From IMG/VR virus record IMGVR_UViG_2579778613_000002, positions 1 through 19,866 of that record: a stretch of DNA of 19,866 nt; one strand, written 5' to 3'. The position numbers and the translations under genes were made by a program. Below are positions 794 to 19,176 of this stretch, one piece after another (the stretch's first letter is position 1; the number at the start of each line of letters is the position of its first letter). The stretch comes from a virus (taxonomy: Duplodnaviria > Heunggongvirae > Uroviricota > Caudoviricetes). The notes under the pieces are model-generated. The model saw only the letters and a list, made by a program, of their open reading frames with translations, did not search any database and was not told the origin of the DNA.

Positions 794-866
794 GTCGTTA
801 ATTCCTATGCGTGGTTTTACGATACCGAAGCCCTGACTGTTACCGCAGTTGGGGCTTCAACTTTCT
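794..866 (+). ncRNA. sar: sar-like small antisense RNA (about 70 nt) complementary to the ant start codon and RBS region
   Basis: Plus-strand promoter-like elements: -35 TTGATA (759-764), 17-bp spacer, -10 TATACT (782-787), predicted start near 794. Hairpin at 827-858 (GAAGCCC / GGGCTTC stem extended by ACTG/CAGT, hexaloop TTACCG) followed by a U-rich run AACTTTCTGCTCT. P22 has an antisense sar RNA of similar size at the equivalent position. Confidence 0.45.
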
Positions 867-7966: not shown

Positions 7967-9384
7967 TACTCAATCCTTATCTGGCAGCCAGACAGAGTGA
8001 CAGGTGACTTCGTGATAACACGCAATTTGAAGCCGACATTTTTCCTGATGCGCCCAACTCGCTTCCACAAAACGCGCTTGTCGTAAACGAACGGTTCATT
8101 CTGCTCAATCATCTGCTCACGACCGTAATTGATGCCGTCAGTGGTTGCAGAGAGGAACAGGCGGTCAGCGTACTGAGCGACACCAGTCGATGATTCAACT
8201 TCCAGATCAAAACATCTGGCGTTCTCAGCTTTGAAGAGTGGTGTAAACAACAGGTGTTCTTGCTGTAGTCCATACTGGCTGCTGATATCGAACTGCAATT
8301 TGCCGGTCACGGACTCCAGCTTATCGCCGCACGTTATCTGATTGCCTTCGTAAATAAAGTCGATAGCGCGGTACACATCGTCATACAGTCCAGTTTTCAG
8401 CGCACACCATTGCGGACCATTGGTACTTGAAGATGCGTCGTACACGAGTACATGGCGCGGAAGATGGATAATCAGCAACTCATGCGCATCAAACCGCAGC
8501 GATTCCATCACACCATCAGCCAGTTCATCAGCAGTGTAGGAGCGGAGAATTTTCTCAATGCTCGCGCTGGCGATTGGTGATACCTGACCGGAGCCGATGA
8601 TGTATACAGACGGCGCACCTGTTGCCGGATTGCTGATGAACGCATAAGAATCAGCAAACGGCGTTTTGCAGTAAGTTCCGGCAATACCTTTCTGCACCAT
8701 CAATGATGGCTGTGCGACATACAAAGCGGCACCAGCGGTGGTTGCCCCCGTCAGGGAGAAATATTCAATCGTCGATGAACCAAAGCAGACGATGAAGTCT
8801 CGCCATGTTCCGATGCCGATGATGCCGTCAGGCTGAGACTCTGCACGATATTGTGCGCTGTATCGGTCAGGGTGCGATTCGTCTTCAAGGTCAGTGATAA
8901 ACCATGAATCAGTGCCGTCTTTTGACCACGCATAACGCCCACGCAAGCGCGTAATGTCACGAACCGAACCTAACTCATACTGAGTGAATCCGCTATCTGC
9001 AGGCCAGTTTGAGACGGTTTTAACCGTGCCATCATAGCGATACTCTACCAGTTGACCATTAACGCCTACAGCCTGAGATGTCCGACCATGCGCCATTGAT
9101 ACACGACCACTTCCGGCAACATCACCGACTTCGCTTTCGCCCTTATACAGCTTGCCCCCACACACGCGATATACAGCACTCTGCGCCATGTTGTACTCGA
9201 CGCCGCGCGATATACCGTTCACATCAGAACGTTTGGCAATGCCCGGGAATGAGCGAAGATATCCGCTGCTGTTAAGGATTTCTTTGGGTGTAGCCAGCAT
9301 ATTCACTGGCAGATAGTCGATGTAGTCGGCGTTTCGGAAATCTTTGCCGACACCTTTCATAAGCGGAAGTTGCTGAATCGGCAT
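7966..9384 (-). CDS. gp10: Tail hub / head completion protein, P22 gp10 homolog (472 aa)
   Basis: ORF-track ORF. Length identical to P22 gp10 and position between gp4 and gp26. Confidence 0.8.
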
Positions 9385-9885: not shown

Positions 9886-10105
9886 CTGCTGCCGCCTTAG
9901 GTTTTCGACCAGGCTTTTTACGCTGTTTTTCTTCTTGCTCTGGCTCTGGCTCTGACTCTGCAACATCCTTCAGAAGATCATCAGGATGTGCAAACCAGCC
10001 AGCATCCAGATATTCCTGAAGCTCTTCGGCTTTCACGATTTCAAAGTCGTATCCAACGCCTTTCCACTTCTTCATGTTGCCATGGCGAAAGATCATGTGT
10101 GTCAT
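9863..10105 (-). CDS. Small protein with acidic Pro/Glu-rich and basic C-terminal tail (about 80 aa); function unknown
   Basis: ORF-track ORF 9863-10153. Preferred start is the ATG at 10105 ([16 protein letters not shown]...) because SD GGAGA lies 5 nt upstream; alternative starts at 10096 or 10075. Contains an in-frame (GCTCTG)x3 repeat at 9937-9960 encoding EPEPEP. Overlaps the gp4 start by about 23 nt. Confidence 0.45.
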
Positions 10106-10118
10106 GCTTGTCTCCAGA

Positions 10119-10141
10119 TAAAAAAGGGAGCCGAAGCTCCC
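10119..10141 (-). terminator. Rho-independent terminator/attenuator immediately after the coat gene
   Basis: Minus strand reads GGGAGC-UUCG-GCUCCC followed by UUUUUUAU (stem 10126-10131 / 10136-10141). It lies 9 nt downstream of the coat stop codon, inside the late operon. Confidence 0.7.
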
Positions 10142-10149
10142 TCTGGTTA

Positions 10150-11445
10150 TCACGCGGTCTGGTTAGGCAGACCAACACCAATTGCCTCTGGTCGTACAGC
10201 ACATGCTGAATACCACACAGCAATACGGCACTTACCAGACAGAGTGTTGATATCACCCTGCGTTGCGAAGATGCCGTTAACACCAATACCAGGAATGCTG
10301 AAGGAAGACGTTTTCATGCCAGCAAACAGTTCATGGGTTACCGGGATCGGCTGAGACAGCAGACGGATTGAGTCATCAGCCCAGAACACGTTAGCGGTGG
10401 TTGTTGCCACGTTCAGAACGTTTACCGGAGTGGTATCAGCAAGAGAGGTGTTTACGTTAGCGTAAGCCTTCTCTTCTTTTGTCAGTGACGCGTCATCCAG
10501 TGCAATCGGCTTCGGCGTGATTTCGATGTGAGTACCATCGATCACACGGGTGATTGAGAAAGTCGCATCATCAGTCAGCACGTTCTTCGCCATCTGAGAC
10601 AGGAATTTCACACCAGTGAAGCTGATTTTGTCGCCGCGCTTAAATCCGGTGGTGGAGGATACGGTCACCGTTGCAACACGGTTGTCGACGTTCTCTTTGT
10701 TACCATCGGTATCAAGGGTGTATGCCTGCGGCTTAAACTTCTGCGCTCCAGACACAGTTACACCAGTAGCGGTTGACTTGGTAACTGCCGGAAGTTTCGG
10801 TGAGCGAAGAATTTCATCAAAGCCAGCAATCTGACGCTGAATAGTACCGTTGCGATACGCTTCTTCAGGAACGCGCCCAAAGATGTCACCATCTACCAGG
10901 TTGCGGCCTGCTTTGCGGTAATCGTCAGGGTTCAGGAAGTAACTGATGCCCATATCGCGGTTTAGCTCACGGGAGAACATCAGGCGCTCTGCATCAGACA
11001 CAAAATCCCAGCCAGACAGGCCAGTAGATGGACCAATTGCGCGGGTATCGTGAACAACAAGTGAGCCCATTTCGGTTGCCTGTTTGGCAATCGCTGACTC
11101 AATGTTATTCGCCAGTTTTTTGGCGGATGCCTGGATGCGGCGACGGTAAGAACGCTCATCACGCAGGTCATCTGCACGAAGCTCGAAGAAATCGTTATCC
11201 GGATCGCCCATGTTGCACTTCACGGAGAGTTCCAGAATCCCGGTTGCGTTGCCAGTTAAATCCCAGCCAGTCTGGGTTGGCGCTTCCTGCTCAACAGGCA
11301 TCCACACGGTGTTGCTTGAACGCTGCATGGATTCTGCCGGAGGGGTGTATTTTGTCACTTTGGACGCCATTGGCGTCAGGTTCTGGACGGTTTCGATGAT
11401 TTCATCGATAGCGTAAGTAACTAACTGCCCTTCTTTGAGAGTCAT
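10150..11445 (-). CDS. gp5: Major coat protein, P22 gp5 homolog (431 aa)
   Basis: ORF-track ORF. Sequence (...[22 protein letters not shown]...[10 protein letters not shown]...CRIAVWY...[14 protein letters not shown]) closely matches P22 coat protein (430 aa) as recalled; downstream of scaffold. Confidence 0.9.
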
Positions 11446-11512
11446 ATATTGAATACCTTACTTTCTTTATGTGCTATACTATTGTTATATCAACATATAG
11501 CGCATTAGGGTT

Positions 11513-12034
11513 ATGAGCATGGAACTGAATGAATACTTCGAATACCGCGATGGCTCTTTGGTTTGGAAAGCCAGAAGCTCTGAATTTTTCAACAACAAAA
11601 AGAATCGCAACTATCACAACGTTTGGAATGCAAAACACGCTGGGAAAGTTGCTGGTCTTTTAGAAAGCAATGGATATATCCGCATAAGAATTAACGGCAT
11701 TAAGTGGCTAGCACACCGCATCGTATGGGTGATGTTTAACGGAGATATTCCAGAAGGCATGGAAATTGACCATATAAATGGGATTCGCCACGACAACAGA
11801 ATTGAAAATCTTCGTCTTGTGAAAAAATCAGCAAACCAAAGGAATAGAATCAAACTATCTAAAAATAACTCCAGCGGAATATCTGGAGTTTACTTTTGCA
11901 ACACGCGGAAAAGATGGATCGCTCATAAGCGACTGCTTAATGCAAGAGTGCAAAAAGTATGTTCTTCATTCGAAGAGGCGAAAGAAGTAATCAGAAAGTT
12001 TGACGAGGAAAACAACATCACGATATCGAAATAA
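11513..12034 (+). CDS. HNH homing-type endonuclease (NUMOD4-like N-terminus, HNH motif, AP2-like DNA-binding domain), inserted between scaffold and coat genes
   Basis: ORF-track ORF, antisense to the late operon. HNH motif EIDHINGIRHDNRIENLRLV; N-terminal YRDGSLVWK and downstream GISGVYF...KRWIAHK fit the NUMOD4/HNH_3/AP2 architecture of phage homing endonucleases. Start is more likely the second ATG at 11519, which has AGGG 8 nt upstream. Extended -10 TGcTATACT at 11472-11480. Its TAA stop (12032-12034) directly abuts the scaffold stop codon (12035-12037). Visibly AT-rich. Confidence 0.8.
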   Translation: MSMELNEYFEYRDGSLVWKARSSEFFNNKKNRNYHNVWNAKHAGKVAGLLESNGYIRIRINGIKWLAHRIVWVMFNGDIPEGMEIDHINGIRHDNRIENLRLVKKSANQRNRIKLSKNNSSGISGVYFCNTRKRWIAHKRLLNARVQKVCSSFEEAKEVIRKFDEENNITISK

Positions 12035-12946
12035 TTATCGAATTCCTTTATTCAGTTGCGCCTTAAGCTTGCGGTATGTCTCTACATCCCCTTTGTTTGC
12101 TGCCGCTTCCATCTGCTTTTCAATCGCAGATATATTTGCAGCAACAGCGTGTCCCTGAATGGGTTCATCAGGTAACGGGGCTTCTGAAACAGGCTTGGCT
12201 CGAGGCTTGAGAGTTAAACGTTCTGACAGTCGAGTGAGTTCAATCAGCGCGGATTGCCCGTCCATCGCCAGCAACTGGCGTGTTTTCTCAGGATTAGCAC
12301 CAAGGTGATACATGAGAGCGGCGGATTTCTCCGGGAAGAGGCGCATGATGTCGGCACCGACTGCTGGCGGCACCAGTTGCATGAATGCATCCTCTTTCTC
12401 CTGATAGTCAGGGATATTGAGCTTTTCCGCTGCGTCGTAGTGCTTACGGGCTGCCTCGACGTATTGCGCTGATTGCTGGGTGAACTCCTGAGTTTTTCGA
12501 CCCTGCTCGGCGACAGCCTGGCTTCGTGCATCCATAGCCTTGATCTGCCATTCACTGTTTGCCTGCTGGAAGGCAGCCAGTGCGCGGCTCTGGTCATAGT
12601 CGTACTTAGCCAGTGCGTCTTCGGAAAGATAATCGTTAGGGTCTGGTTGTTTTGGTAACTCAGGGCTCACCCGCAGGTGCTCCGGCAACTCTCCACGCTT
12701 AACTGCTTCCATCTGCTGCTCAAGCTCACGCTGGCGTTTGCGTTCGATGCGGCGACGGGCAAATTCAGCATTAGTTGCCGGGTCTTGTTTTGGTTTCTCA
12801 TCGTCTTTCAGGACAATCTCGAAGCCTTCTTCCTGACCTGCGTTGTCGTTGGCATTATCGACAACTAAGCCATCAGCAGATGCCGCTGCATGATTGCCGG
12901 GCAGGGTTAATTCTTCAGAAGCCTGAATGTCGGTGGTTTGGTCCAT
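12035..12946 (-). CDS. gp8: Scaffolding protein, P22 gp8 homolog (303 aa)
   Basis: ORF-track ORF. Same length as P22 gp8 and near-identical stretches (e.g. [12 protein letters not shown]..., ...[49 protein letters not shown]...). Confidence 0.85.
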
Positions 12947-12959
12947 GATTAACTCTCTC

Positions 12960-15128
12960 TTATTGAGGTGTCTCGGCTACTCCGCCGGAGGGGATTTGAA
13001 CTTGACGCATAAGATTCGCGAAATCCATGCGTTGTGAATGAGTCTGGTCTGCATCTTTAAGAAGCAGCTCAGCGTTAGCACGAGCATCTTTGCTGCGCTG
13101 TTGCTGGAATTGACCTACGAGCTTGAGGTACTCACGCAGTTCTGCCTGCTTGTCGAGGTCCATATTGTTGAAGATTTCTGCAATCTTCGCGGCGTTGAGT
13201 TGGTTTTGAGCTTCAACCTTGGCGGCTTCAACCTGAATCTGCGCCTGTTGGTTCTCTGCCTTGAGCAATTCAGCCTGACCTTGCAGAAGGATACCCTGCG
13301 CCTGAATTTGCTCTGCTGATGGCTGCTGCGGCTGCTGTTGAGCCTGCTGTACCATCTCCATCTCTTCAGGTGTTTCTGGTTTCTTCAGCCCCATCATCAC
13401 CAGTTGCTTGTTCGCGTACTCTCGCATCATCTCGACGCCTTTACCGTCAAGCAGCGTGAAGTATTGCAGCATCAGCATCTGGAACTCTGGAGTACCTTGC
13501 GGAACCTTTGTTAGCAACTCCTGAATCTCTGCGCGATTCTGTTCCTTCATACTCTGGAAGGATGGTCCAACGTCTGTATAGCACTCATAGCGACCGCGAA
13601 TGTCGTTGAGTGTGACCACATTGCCGGACTGGTAATCGACAACTTGCGCATAGAGTTGAACGTCTTTCTCGCTTCCATCTTCAAGTGTCAGCGTTACATG
13701 ACGAGGAACGTCATAAATATCGTTGACCATTGAGGCATAAATCTCGCCATCACGTCGCATTGCGGTAGCCAGGTTATCCTGAAACACGTATGTCTCAAGA
13801 TCTGCCCGCATGTTCAGTTGATTGACGGTATCGAAAGCGACCTGAGAGTTTGCCGCCTGCGCATCCACGCCAAGACTAGCCACCTCTTTCACTGCGTTGG
13901 TGGCAGCCTCAAGCATGTAAGCGTTGGCTTGCGGCACTTCAGGGTTTTCCATGTAGGAGATTGGACCAATCGGCAGGTCGTTACCGTTTTCATCGGTCCT
14001 GTTCTGCAGATAGTACGGATAGTCATCATTTCCACCGTACATGTATTCGTAGCCTTCGATTTGCTCAGGGAAGAAGGTCGGTTTCTTCTTCGGTGAACGA
14101 GCAACAATATCGGCGTTGAACGACATGATCATGTTACGAAGGCGCTGACCGTCTTTCGTCAGCCTTACCACTCCTTCGTAGCACTCCTTGTCACCAGCGA
14201 ATGACCATTCGCCATACACTGGAACGATTGGAATATGCTCTCCGGCTATCTTCTCGCGGTCTTTCAGTATCTGCGTGCAGGTGATGATCGACTTATACAC
14301 ACGCCGACGCTTCACCTTGCGCTCTGCTACCTTAATGAATCCACGATTAGCCAGGTCGTCGATGACGTCTTTGATATCCTGCTGGTAATAGCTGACCGGC
14401 TCACCTGTCAGCGGGTCGCGGTAGATGAAGACCTTCTCCTTCTTCTCTTCTACCTCGTAATACTCAGCGACGTAGACGACATCATTCGACACCCACGGGA
14501 ATAGCCATGTATCGTTAGGATTCTGGAAAGATGGCAAGGTATCCGGGTCAATACCGTAATCCTCTGCGAACTCTTTCCAGCCATTGCGCGACAAGGCGTT
14601 AATCACCGTGCAATGCTTAGCGTCGCTCTTATCCATCTGCTTGCTGTTGGCGTCCCATATAACGTGTGAGCAAGCTTCATGGATTGGCAGGCGTCGGATT
14701 ACCTGATTGTTGCTTGTTGGGTCGTTGTCTTCGTACTGCGTGACCAGACGCCATGCACCAACGCCTGACTCTATCTGCTCACGAACGCCAACGTTAACGG
14801 CAATTTTTGCCGTATTATGGCGCATATCAGTACGATACATTCCCATCAACACATCGGCAGCATCAGGATTAGCACCGTCTTTTGGTCGGAAGAGAACGTC
14901 GATAGGGTTCCGGCGCATCTCTGCGACCAGTTTCCTGACCACCGGGCGAACAACATCGAATTGTCCGCGATATTGCAGGGTGGTGTAGTTTGATAGCCAG
15001 TCATCCCATTGGCTTATGCGACTGAAGTATAAATCGTTAGAAGCTTCTGTTCTCGCCTCGTCGGAAGACATCCAATCAACATCGAATGCTTGCAGTATCT
15101 TATTTAATCGCTCTGCGTTGTCAGTCAT
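12960..15128 (-). CDS. gp1: Portal protein, P22 gp1 homolog (722 aa)
   Basis: ORF-track ORF. Strong similarity to P22 portal as recalled (e.g. [56 protein letters not shown], and the C-terminal Gln-rich barrel region). Confidence 0.9.
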
Positions 15129-15147
15129 AACTTTACCGTGATAAAAT
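15118..15147 (+). promoter_or_regulatory. Sigma70-type promoter for the antisense HNH endonuclease gene, overlapping the portal start
   Basis: -35 TTGTCA (15118-15123), 18-bp spacer, extended -10 TGaTAAAAT (15139-15147). Followed by SD AGGAG (15166-15170) 8 nt before the GTG start at 15179. Confidence 0.5.
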
Positions 15148-15178
15148 CAATGGGACAACTTCAACAGGAGATTCTATT

Positions 15179-15679
15179 GTGAGCCATCCATCTATAGAAG
15201 ATATAAGGAAAAATTTCACATACGATGCTGAAACCGGAATTTTGTACGCGGCTAATCGCACAAGGAGGACAGACCTTAACGGCAAGCCAGTTGGGTGCCA
15301 GCATGGAAACGGATACCTTGATGTAAGGCTTGGTAAAAAACTGTACTACGTGCACAGAATTTGTTTTGCGCACTACTATGGTTACTGGCCCGAAGCAGTA
15401 GATCACATAAACGGAAACCGTGCTGATAACCGCATCTGTAATCTTAGAGATGCCAATAAGCAGTTGAACGGACTAAACCGTGGCATGGATTGCGACAATT
15501 CAACTGGATACAAAGGAGTTTCCTATCGCAAGGACACAAATAACTACATGTGGCAATTTGTGGTAGAAGGCAAGAAATACACAAAAAGCGGATTCGCTAC
15601 AGCATTAGATGCATACAAGCATAAGGTAGCATTTATTAACGCTCTGAATTCCGCTGCCTCTGAATTTCTCAAGCCGTAA
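15179..15679 (+). CDS. HNH homing-type endonuclease (paralog of the 11513-12034 gene), inserted between TerL and portal genes
   Basis: ORF-track ORF with GTG start, antisense to the late operon. HNH motif AVDHINGNRADNRICNLR; same domain order as the other HNH gene (NUMOD4-like FTYDAETGILY, HNH, AP2-like GYKGVSYRK...MWQF). Ends 9 nt from the TerL stop codon. AT-rich. Confidence 0.8.
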   Translation: MSHPSIEDIRKNFTYDAETGILYAANRTRRTDLNGKPVGCQHGNGYLDVRLGKKLYYVHRICFAHYYGYWPEAVDHINGNRADNRICNLRDANKQLNGLNRGMDCDNSTGYKGVSYRKDTNNYMWQFVVEGKKYTKSGFATALDAYKHKVAFINALNSAASEFLKP

Positions 15680-15688
15680 CAACAGTAT

Positions 15689-17191
15689 CTATCTTGTTGA
15701 CCGTGCGATGGGCCTGATTGGGGCTGGTATCTTTTTCTCTTTTGGTTTTTTGATGTCGCGCATCATTTTTGCGAAGCGGCGCATCATGTATGCATAGCGA
15801 ACGGCGGATAGCACGTCGTCGTTAAGCTTGACGATTTTCCCGTTTTCATCGCGGTGATAGAGGCGGAACTCCTCAAAGAATGGCTCACAGGTGTTGAATA
15901 CTTTGAAGCGACCATCAAGCATCATGTCGCGCAATTCAGTGATTCCAGGCTCCACCGCGTTACCGCCATCAGGCCATGTCGCATGCTCCTGCAACATCAT
16001 AAAACCAGCATCTGCATACTGCCCTTTGAGCTGCTCACCGCCGCCCTTCTCGTGCTGGTTTCCGTCATGAGGCCATGCTGTTGGCACTTTATGCGCCCAT
16101 GATTTAACAGCTCCCCATGCCTGAACGGCTGTTTTTTCTTTCGCCTTCCACACGCGTGAAACGTAGATTGTGTCTGCGTCCTTATCCCACCAAAGCTGAA
16201 CCTGCGCCTGTGGGTGATCCCATCCGAAATCCATCCCGCCAATTACGTAGAAGTGATCAGGACACTCGAACGGCTGACACTTAATCGTCTCTTCCGGTAT
16301 CTGGAATATTCGCCCGCTACCCATCGTAGGAATACCGCGAGCACGCGCCTCTCTCTCATGCTCAGGATAGGATGCGATGATTTGCTCTTTCTGCTCGTCG
16401 GTGTAGTGCTCAGCGTCATAGATGGTCATGTTGACCACTTTCTGAGACTTGCTGGGATTCTTCAGGAACTTGGTAACAACGTCAGACATCCCCATCAGCG
16501 GGGTAAACGTCAGAATTGAGAATTGCCCGTATTTGTTGGTACGGGTAAGACCTTCGCCATAAATGCTGTATGGTGGCTCTTCGTCAAACCACACGCCGTG
16601 GATTGTGTCACCCTGCCAGCGAGCACGGCCTTGCGAGTATGGCTTGAAGTAGCAGATTGAAATGCCATCTTCAACGCCATCAGCCGTGTGATGCTTAACC
16701 AGAAGATGATCAACAAGGTTCGGAAAGAAAGGAGACTTCTTCCAGCTAATGATGTCTTCTTTAGGTATGGAACCGTAGCCTGGCTCATCATTCTCTTCGA
16801 TACGACCACACAGGATGCGTTGAGTCGTTTTGGTTACAGTCTCGTTTGTCTCGCCGCCAATCCAGAAGACAACAGGCTCATAGAAACGCTTACCTTTCCA
16901 CTCCCCACCATATTTACCATCAGCCGGATAGCCTTTTGTTCCCGGATAACGCCCGGTAAGGTGAAACGCGACTTCAGCAGCACCAGTAAATGACTTACCA
17001 AGCTGGTTACCAGCCATAAAACAGCGCTCTGGATAGTCATGCCCGGCGTCGATGAACTCACGCTGTTTGCTGTATGGCGTAAATTCATATAGCAGGTGTG
17101 TGTTCCGGTAGTTCTCTTCTTCTTCGAGTAGCTCGAGCAATTCTATTTGCTCTTCGTCGCTCAGGTTATCAAGAATCGCGTCCAGTTCCAC
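15689..17191 (-). CDS. gp2: Terminase large subunit, P22 gp2 homolog (500 aa)
   Basis: ORF-track ORF. N-terminus [70 protein letters not shown]... matches P22 TerL as recalled, with a Walker A-like GNQLGKS. Start overlaps the TerS 3' end. Confidence 0.9.
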
Positions 17192-17663
17192 GGTTGAATA
17201 GCTCCTTGATACGAGAGCGTCGCTTATCGCGATCTCCCTTATCAGGTGTCACGTCTTCAACTTGCGACTGCTCTTTGAGGCCCAAATCACGGGCGATAAT
17301 GTTAGCGTTGAGAAGGTCAGCGGCTGCGCCAGAGAATTTCTGGTCGTAGATGACCTGCTCTGCTCGCGTAACGACTTCAGATAAATCTTCTCGCAGGCGA
17401 TATGTGCGCCATGTTTCAAGAGTCACATCAATGAACAGAGTGAGGCCGGTAATGGTCATCGCTCGCATCTTGGCGATAGGCTCTTGTATCACTTCACCCT
17501 GATACGAGAACGCCTTCATCTCCCATAGCGGGTTAGCTTCTACCCACTCGAAGTATTCACAACAAGCAGCCCACAGCGCCTCAGGCGATTCGAATTTAGG
17601 ATTTCGCCCATGACTACTGCGGGCCTCCCAAAATCGGTTGCCCTTTGGTGCTGCCATATTCAT
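17169..17663 (-). CDS. gp3: Terminase small subunit, P22 gp3 homolog (162-164 aa)
   Basis: ORF-track ORF. Sequence (M)[51 protein letters not shown]... matches P22 gp3 as recalled. The start may be the ATG at 17657 rather than 17663. Confidence 0.85.
17369..17390 (-). other. pac: pac site (headful packaging initiation sequence) within the TerS gene
   Basis: Minus strand reads GAAGATTTATCTGAAGTCGTTA, encoding EDLSEVV of TerS. This matches the 22-bp P22 pac sequence as I recall it, at the expected place inside gene 3. Confidence 0.5.
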
Positions 17664-18494: not shown

Positions 18495-18737
18495 TCAATA
18501 ATGTGGGAATTGGCTACTATTTTGCAAGATAACCCAAGATGGGCGAAACAAGTCAAAAACATTGATGCTTAACAGGGCTTCATTTATTGATTTTTTTTCA
18601 TCCGTAGAAACTCCGCGTCCTGCATTTGACATTACAAGCTGACCATTAACTATTTCACTACATTGTTTTACATAACTACCTGGCGGTATTGATTGAAAGT
18701 TACATGTACCATTTATTATTTTATCAATTTCACTCAT
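18495..18737 (-). CDS. AT-rich moron ORF (80 aa); function unknown
   Basis: ORF-track ORF. SD GAGG 5 nt upstream of the ATG. Strikingly AT-rich compared with neighbours, and followed by its own terminator. Protein has no motif I recognise. Confidence 0.5.
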   Translation of the reverse strand: MSEIDKIINGTCNFQSIPPGSYVKQCSEIVNGQLVMSNAGRGVSTDEKKSINEALLSINVFDLFRPSWVILQNSSQFPHY

Positions 18738-19176
18738 ATCAACCTCGTCTAGTTGTTCGTCATAGATTCAGTGGCTGGCGGTGACGATTCCGCTTTTCGG
18801 GAGCTACCCTAGCCACTGCTTGATTCTATCCGATGTCTTTCCATCAGTCCGCCACCACAAAGAATCTTTTTTGCCATAAGGCAGGAGGTTCATCTTTCAG
18901 TGGCTGCCAGTGTTATTTCCCCGCTTTCTGGCTTGGGTTGTTTCGCTGTACTGCCGTAACTGGTTACCAAGAATAAATTTTGGTTTCATTATCAAGCCCA
19001 TCCGTAGATAGGCTTTGTAATGAACTGGCTCTTATCTCAACGCAGCCCCTTACCGCGCGCCATATGCTTAACTTCAAGCATCAGCAATGAGATGTTAAAT
19101 CTGGATTCACTCCAGAAGTGATCACCACCCTGTCTACAGAGCCAGATGTGAAGGATGATGAGTAAAATTATCGCTA

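Follow-up and report, generated by a model that had tools for sequence, protein, structure and literature searches.

Homing endonucleases of the HNH-AP2 type reportedly were described from phages, cyanobacteria and ciliates by Magnani et al. in 2004, and I-HmuI (PDB 1U3E) is an HNH homing endonuclease from a group I intron in the DNA polymerase gene of Bacillus phage SPO1. T4-like phages contain intergenic, free-standing homing endonuclease genes (Seg, Mob) that move by intronless homing and are variably present among close relatives; their spread proceeds by break repair with co-conversion of flanks, embedded signals protect the neighbouring genes, and segD of T4 lies antisense, adjoining the major capsid gene (PMC2988022). 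For Salmonella phage SEN22, an HNH endonuclease insertion between terminase and portal has been published (PMC5261728). Here we analyse a 19,866-nt stretch of caudoviral DNA (IMG/VR record IMGVR_UViG_2579778613_000002; hereafter the window). These 19.9 kb belong to a P22-like (Lederbergvirus) phage or prophage and represent its late (morphogenesis) operon, encoded on the minus strand. A 589-nt insert carrying an HNH endonuclease gene, termed HNH1, separates its scaffold and coat genes, and a related gene, HNH2, occupies a second insert between portal and the large terminase gene (TerL).

We assign a probability of roughly 0.8 to the reading that the 589-nt insert is a free-standing HNH-AP2 homing endonuclease gene cassette that has spread by homing. 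This reading is built on the precision of the insertion, a recoded coat start linked to it, the distribution of the cassette among near-identical genomes, and a diverged lineage of orthologues at the same site. All features are listed in Table 1.

Insertion of the HNH1 cassette

In cassette-less relatives of the IME10 type, the scaffold stop overlaps the coat start at CATTATCG, which reads TAATG on the sense strand. The window and the E. coli phages Louie and Dewey carry 589 extra bases exactly between these two codons; because the empty site contains a 1-nt scaffold/coat overlap, the net gain is 590 nt rather than 589. The interval to which an earlier annotation of this DNA, made from its letters without database searches (the original prediction), had assigned an HNH-AP2 endonuclease is exactly this inserted cassette, and not the open reading frame (ORF) inside it. 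Scaffold-side sequence shows no change as far as the stop codon. The HNH1 TAA (12032–12034) is followed directly by TTA (12035–12037), the complement of the scaffold stop, so that no base separates the two genes and the junction reads TAATTA, as the original prediction had stated.

The HNH1 ORF is an intact plus-strand frame with a Pfam HNH_3 match, which bears out the proposal of an HNH endonuclease antisense between scaffold and coat. A second ATG at 11519 yields 171 amino acids (aa; 516 nt) and is the start chosen by the NCBI automatic annotation (PGAP) for the closest prophage, in the E. coli record CP191548. Its distance from the AGGG Shine-Dalgarno at 11507–11510 is more favourable than that of the ATG at 11513, and it may be the start of the gene. 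The frame is uninterrupted in all 19 copies found among the retrieved loci, in which certain contigs are represented twice, and the ratio of nonsynonymous to synonymous substitution rates (dN/dS) is ~0.06 relative to an orthologue of 82% identity. HNH1 thereby bears the marks of a real gene under strong purifying selection, and it is already annotated as 'HNH endonuclease' in Louie, Dewey and E. coli RefSeq records. A search with Rfam gave no match to an intron, or to any other RNA family, within the cassette or close to it. An intron context is thereby excluded: HNH1 is a nuclease ORF in an intergenic insertion, outside any intron or intein.

A protein of 102 aa from E. coli in the NCBI database (P0005) is an HNH1 variant truncated at its N-terminus (MGDVYGDIPEGM...), its remaining C-terminal residues being identical to HNH1. 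It suggests that certain copies have suffered frameshifts or are degenerating, a fate that homing endonuclease genes are expected to meet towards the end of their life cycle. Inside the ORF, terminator-like hairpins at 11867–11890 and 11918–11933 are readable on the late-operon strand (for example AACTCCAGATATTCCGCTGGAGTT followed by ATTTTTAG), and the former was called on both strands by the terminator scan. If functional, it would stand between scaffold and coat in the late transcript; it is not conserved in orthologous cassettes, for which reason it is probably a chance structure and was rejected as a functional terminator.

Linkage to a recoded coat start and spread among relatives

The distribution of the cassette was surveyed in 5,426 complete E. 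coli genomes, 222 of which contain this capsid module, and in 80 IMG/VR contigs with the closest coat genes. It was found in 20 of the 222 genomes, always as a single copy at the same site and with at least 99.2% identity, and in 10 of the 80 contigs; among isolated phages it is present in Louie and Dewey and absent from IME10, HZ41 and CurroJimenez. The beginning of the coat gene differs with the state of the site. A recoded block covering codons 2–13 was present in all cassette-bearing IMG/VR loci (10/10) and in none of the empty ones (0/70). Single-nucleotide polymorphisms associated with the cassette are confined to coat nt +3 to +38, and none occurs across 1.4 kb on the scaffold side or in the remainder of the coat gene; past codon 13, identity with the empty alleles resumes.

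Cassette-bearing and empty loci are interleaved by flank sequence. Flanks of cassette-bearing loci differ at 1.65% per site, about as much as those of empty loci, whereas diversity within the cassette is 0.42% per site, four-fold below the flanks. The nearest neighbour by flank sequence was cassette-less, or tied, for 10 of 13 cassette-bearing loci and strictly cassette-bearing for the other 3. This pattern would be expected of a recently spreading element and not of a vertically inherited clade; recombination of the ordinary kind could add to it. The same observations bear on a passive origin, in which the cassette was acquired once by illegitimate recombination and has since moved by general homologous recombination only, its endonuclease having ceased to drive movement. 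In favour of such an origin, P22-like genomes show pronounced mosaicism (PMC11990801), the cassette loses its association with flanking sequence inside 40 nt on one side and at once on the other, which frequent recombination would also bring about, and the N-terminally truncated P0005 exists in the protein database. We nevertheless consider a passive cassette improbable: its low diversity relative to the flanks indicates recent spread across backgrounds, purifying selection has acted over a long divergence with every surveyed copy intact, the catalytic residues are invariant, and orthologues down to 59% identity occupy the same site.

A further allele is found in 8 cassette-less E. coli genomes, namely PEC301 and ECONIH6 (loci L067 and L068, coat start at locus position 1550) and six others, in which coat positions +11 to +38 carry part of the block, together with wild-type codons 1–3 and the native TAATG. 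It occurs on at least two backgrounds, since the two loci compared, PEC301 and ECONIH6, differ at ~50 positions in ~3 kb. Formation by deletion of the cassette between flanking imperfect 14-nt repeats was rejected, because codons 2 and 3 are wild type. The allele could be a repair product, an escape (cleavage-resistant) allele or, equally, a natural or ancestral variant in which the cassette first settled.

A diverged lineage at the same site

Other P22-like contigs encode orthologues of HNH1 with 82%, 74% and 59% identity, each of them antisense and placed between scaffold and coat. The TAATTA stop junction is kept in the 82% and 74% orthologous cassettes, while the 59% orthologue has an 11-nt spacer. 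The upstream regions have diverged, yet the complement of the coat Shine-Dalgarno (GTAAGG) is retained 10 nt before the coat ATG. An extended -10 element is likewise found, as TGCTATAAT in the 82% and TGCTATACT in the 74% orthologous cassette; the 59% orthologue has TATAAT within a consensus promoter, TTGCAT-17-TATAAT. In all four diverged cassette-bearing lineages, coat codons 5–7 are GAA GGG CAG, versus GAA GGT CAA in empty alleles. These comparisons point to one diverged lineage that is specific to the scaffold-coat site and inserted in one antisense orientation.

Domain architecture of HNH1

HNH1 matches Pfam HNH_3 (PF13392) with 78 bits (cutoff 24.8; E = 3.9e-22) over residues 66–110, and both HNH1 and HNH2 match phrog_99, 'HNH endonuclease', over nearly their full length (E ~1e-50). 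Residues D86, H87, N89, N99 and N108 are invariant in a 44-sequence family alignment, and this core segment aligns with the DH...N...N stretch of I-HmuI, whose conserved D-H...N...N residues have catalytic roles. The predicted fold of the core is a beta-beta-alpha-metal arrangement similar to that of a solved HNH homing endonuclease. C-terminal to it, a three-stranded sheet and one helix are predicted that superpose on solved AP2/ERF domains. The domain order HNH-AP2 given by the original prediction therefore stands in part: HNH_3 and an AP2-type predicted fold are both found in that order, the latter below the Pfam threshold. The support for the AP2-type domain comes from relatives, 15 of the 44 aligned sequences matching AP2 at E < 1e-3, and from the predicted fold; the assignment is right by fold and not by Pfam threshold. 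HNH1 is accordingly modelled as a protein of ~20 kDa with an I-HmuI-like N-terminal sheet, an HNH (His-Me finger) core and a C-terminal AP2-type domain.

Relatives occur in at least 920 phage genome records (E <= 1e-15). NCBIfam returned no match, and the only PADLOC matches were to generic 'homing endonuclease' models.

Coat start and expression signals

At the empty site, the final codons of scaffold contain the coat Shine-Dalgarno (AAGGA), and the scaffold TAA shares a base with the coat ATG. The cassette must therefore supply a substitute, and does so with GTAAGG. The end of the cassette next to coat, AAGGTATTCAATAT-ATG, is similar to the native AAGGAATTCGATA-ATG and is kept in the orthologues. 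To judge from the sequence, the cassette replaces the native translational coupling through TAATG and gives coat a new Shine-Dalgarno. This substitute, the recoded coat codons 2–13, the stop junction kept in orthologues and the existing annotation had all gone unnoticed in the original prediction.

Back to back with this ribosome-binding site lies the predicted extended -10 element of HNH1, TGCTATACT, in line with the earlier placement of a promoter close to the coat translation signals; transcription is predicted to start near 11487. The pattern TGNTAWAMT has only four matches in the window, of which one is directly upstream of HNH1 and one upstream of HNH2, where chance would give ~0.007 matches in the two spacers by a rough estimate. 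A third, at 779–787, is a 9-mer identical to that of HNH1. It immediately precedes a match to sar RNA (Rfam, 85.7 bits, 795–862, plus strand), which in P22 is the antisense RNA of the ant region, and so stands at the position expected for a sar promoter. To look for autoregulation in the style of I-TevI, the HNH1 promoter region was compared with the target at the empty site. The top local score, 9, did not stand out from the null (8.2 ± 1.3; p = 0.34), which means that there is no operator-like copy of the target at the HNH1 promoter; the only match was between the native and substitute coat Shine-Dalgarno regions.

Such a promoter raises the possibility that HNH1 is mainly an exclusion weapon, constitutive in lysogens and cutting superinfecting or co-infecting cassette-less P22-like relatives (marker exclusion), with homing as a by-product. 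The conserved extended -10 is of the host sigma-70 type and shares its 9-mer with the sequence just upstream of the sar RNA, the antisense orientation uncouples HNH1 from a late operon that is silent in lysogens, the partly recoded cassette-less allele (8 genomes, at least two backgrounds) looks like an escape from cleavage, and PADLOC counts homing endonuclease models among candidate defence proteins. Set against this, expression in lysogens is only predicted, no more than ~9% of the prophages that have this capsid module carry the cassette, and the recoded allele has other possible origins; exclusion by the Seg and Mob enzymes of T4 is moreover viewed as a consequence of homing and not as a separate function (PMC2988022). 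Exclusion as the main function is possible but on the unlikely side, and it overlaps with homing rather than excluding it.

No terminator for the HNH transcript was found before the abutting scaffold stop, so the transcript would run antisense into scaffold mRNA. A joint reading can be drawn from this, in which HNH1 would be a lysogen-expressed weapon against the coat start of cassette-less rivals, the partly recoded allele would be an arms-race escape, and the antisense HNH transcript could alter scaffold-to-coat expression; taken as a whole, we find this doubtful.

The HNH2 cassette and the late operon

HNH2 repeats the anatomy of HNH1: it is antisense, is preceded by an extended -10 element, and adjoins a neighbouring gene, portal, with a recoded start. 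At its other boundary the C-terminus of TerL changes from ..RRT-stop to ..RSTR-stop (stop region 15689–15700). HNH2 matches HNH_3 with 50.1 bits (E = 2e-13), and the motifs quoted in the original prediction are present in both proteins, DHINGIRHDNRIENLR in HNH1 and DHINGNRADNRICNLR in the ORF at 15179–15679. Pairwise alignment gave 41% identity over the 85-aa core (E = 7e-17) and ~30% overall, so the claimed paralogy holds at the level of the family and not as a recent duplication. Because core identity is only 41% and each gene has its own site-specific orthologues, HNH1 and HNH2 are best described as members of one large family that appear to have been acquired separately. Repeated insertion into this genome, suspected from the outset, is likewise upheld, as the two cassettes are independent and near-identical genomes carry both, either or neither. 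HNH2 was present in 2 of the E. coli genomes surveyed, and all four HNH1/HNH2 combinations occur, with both cassettes in one genome, HNH2 alone in one and neither in ~200. Louie and Dewey each have a second, more distant relative of HNH1 elsewhere in the genome, away from the TerL-portal site.

The location of both genes invites comparison with the packaging-associated HNH protein of the HK97 gp74 type, which would make HNH1 a functional component of head assembly that aids terminase cutting. HNH1 does lie inside the head and packaging cluster, and HNH2 adjoins the large terminase gene. We rejected a conserved, co-oriented packaging component, and regard such a role as highly implausible: HNH1 is antisense to the operon, the cassette is missing in ~90% of the viable, near-identical phages and prophages, with IME10 and CurroJimenez among the isolates that lack it, and the protein belongs to the HNH_3/I-HmuI-like family with a sequence-specific AP2-type domain rather than to the short HNH proteins associated with terminase. 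The headful (pac) packaging of P22-like phages also counts against this role.

Beyond coat, the late operon continues with gp4, gp10, the tail needle and the ejection proteins. The nearest phage records are the E. coli phages Louie and Dewey, followed by IME10, HZ41, APC_JM3.2 and CurroJimenez (~97–98% identity), and the prophage in CP191548 matches at 98.8% across an entire 5-kb query.

Table 1. Positions of the two cassettes, their associated sequence elements and the surrounding late genes in the window
Feature	Position	Strand	Remarks
HNH1 cassette	11446–12034		589 nt; from alignment with Louie (filled) and IME10 (empty)
HNH1 ORF	11513–12034	plus	173 aa, between coat and scaffold genes; from the ORF list
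HNH_3 catalytic core	11708–11842	plus	HNH1 residues 66–110
AP2-type DNA-binding domain (predicted fold)	11876–12010	plus	C-terminal, residues ~122–166; three beta strands, then a helix
Abutting convergent stops TAA/TTA	12032–12037		HNH1 stop, scaffold stop
Recoded coat block	11407–11442	minus	coat codons 2–13; 14 substitutions, 3 amino-acid changes
Substitute coat Shine-Dalgarno GTAAGG	11456–11461	minus	cassette-borne
Predicted extended -10 TGCTATACT for HNH1	11472–11480	plus	conserved in orthologous cassettes
HNH2 cassette	15129–15688		between portal and TerL; absent from Louie and IME10
HNH2 ORF	15179–15679	plus	GTG start after AGGAG Shine-Dalgarno
HNH2 extended -10 TGATAAAAT	15139–15147		upstream of HNH2
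Recoded portal 5' end	15012–15128	minus	~codons 2–39, linked to the HNH2 cassette; from alignments with IME10 and Louie
Coat	10150–11445	minus	
Scaffold	12035–12946	minus	
Portal	12960–15128	minus	
Large terminase (TerL)	15689–17191	minus	
Small terminase	17169–17663	minus	

Other parts of the head module vary as well. The CP191548 prophage (locus L003) has a third HNH endonuclease gene at 13293–13877, between gp10 and gp4 and co-oriented with the operon, which adjoins a pseudogene fragment (13926–14018) annotated as a partial packaged-DNA stabilization protein. This gene is not in the window, where gp4 and gp10 are adjacent at 9384/9385. The spacer between coat and gp4 (window 9967–10149) is not the same in all relatives: Louie (L001, 2547–2684) has a 46-aa ORF there, CP191548 (L003, 14496–15107) a 203-aa ORF, and locus L073 (796–1448) two ORFs, one encoding a WDGH-domain protein. 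It looks like a second variable insertion spot of the head module. Between the small-terminase side and the lysis genes, a match to the int-alpA RNA family was found on the minus strand (41.8 bits, gathering score 35.8; 18757–18819), with a match to TGATAAAAT nearby on the same strand (18718–18726).

Proposed route of spread

The homing account would run as follows. HNH1 would be transcribed from its own sigma-70 extended -10 promoter, and may therefore be expressed from the prophage too. When cassette-bearing and cassette-less relatives share a cell, the endonuclease would nick or cut the cassette-less allele at or near coat codons 2–13, ~5–40 bp from the insertion point. We hold the chances even that the target does lie at or near these codons; in size, the fully linked 36-nt block is about what an extended monomeric homing endonuclease would cover on DNA. 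Repair by recombination with the cassette-bearing genome would then copy the cassette and the adjoining recoded coat codons, which would render the new copy immune to cutting. The recoded block is thus a candidate for an altered (immune) homing site or for a co-converted donor tract. An insertion into an essential, translationally coupled gene pair would be tolerated because the scaffold frame is untouched to its stop, because a replacement coat Shine-Dalgarno is supplied, and because HNH1 faces away from late transcription.

Several points weigh against this account. Cleavage, target site and homing of HNH1 are all predictions from sequence comparison. Instead of determining immunity, the recoded block could have hitch-hiked from the donor or be a natural variant of coat, and its sharp right edge may only reflect the scarcity of informative differences beyond it. 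One insertion could also be scattered over many backgrounds by nothing more than the extensive homologous recombination among P22-like prophages. The HNH1 promoter remains a predicted one: a generic sigma-70 scan called no plus-strand promoter in 11446–11512, where TTGAAT and TATACT stand 20 nt apart, and the conserved extended -10 element was therefore relied on instead. The Pfam AP2 threshold (cutoff 33.3) was not reached by either protein, HNH1 scoring 17.6 bits (E = 0.005) and HNH2 15.7 bits (E = 0.02). Finally, enzymes of the I-HmuI type nick one strand (PMC2988022), so that a double-strand break is not assured; a nick that replication turns into a break and a direct double-strand cut are equally likely.

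Significance and comparison with known systems

The value of this locus lies in its being a clean natural system, in which one site-specific lineage splits a translationally coupled pair of essential genes. There is no visible harm, since the upstream stop codon is preserved and coat receives a new ribosome-binding site. Among near-identical E. coli prophages, alleles in the filled, the empty and the partly recoded state are all in circulation, and cultured isolates exist in both the filled (Louie, Dewey) and the empty (CurroJimenez, IME10) state, so that homing, target immunity and the cost or benefit of the antisense gene can be tested directly. The cassettes also have consequences for annotating P22-like capsid modules and for building phylogenies from them, since the initial 13 codons of coat and ~39 of portal move together with the cassettes. 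Our literature search found no paper on the scaffold-coat HNH lineage, and the paper describing Louie and Dewey makes no mention of HNH1.

The HNH1 cassette is not a new kind of element, since HNH-AP2 homing endonucleases are very common in phages and the exact protein is already in GenBank. Its domain order is that of the HNH-AP2 homing endonucleases (PF13392 followed by PF00847), although the window proteins fall below the AP2 gathering threshold. Compared with the intron-encoded I-HmuI, HNH1 is free-standing and intergenic, shares only ~23% identity, and has a C-terminal AP2 fold where I-HmuI has a helical module of the helix-turn-helix type. The SEN22 protein (YP_009191456) is an orthologue of HNH2, with 68% identity, the same TerL-portal site, the same antisense orientation and the same extended -10 context; relative to HNH1 it occupies a different site and is only ~30–40% identical. 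The Seg and Mob genes of T4 are likewise intergenic selfish nuclease genes of variable presence, segD also being antisense beside a capsid gene. The T4 elements, however, are mostly co-oriented with their neighbours, often have no promoter of their own, and can have their cut sites hundreds of bp from the gene, whereas HNH1 is antisense, has its own conserved predicted promoter, is linked to a block within 40 bp of the insertion, is carried by a temperate phage or prophage, and comes between two translationally coupled genes. To these known systems the HNH1 cassette adds the anatomy of a harmless insertion, a linked recoded coat start, a conserved predicted promoter and a conserved Shine-Dalgarno, and population evidence of active spread.

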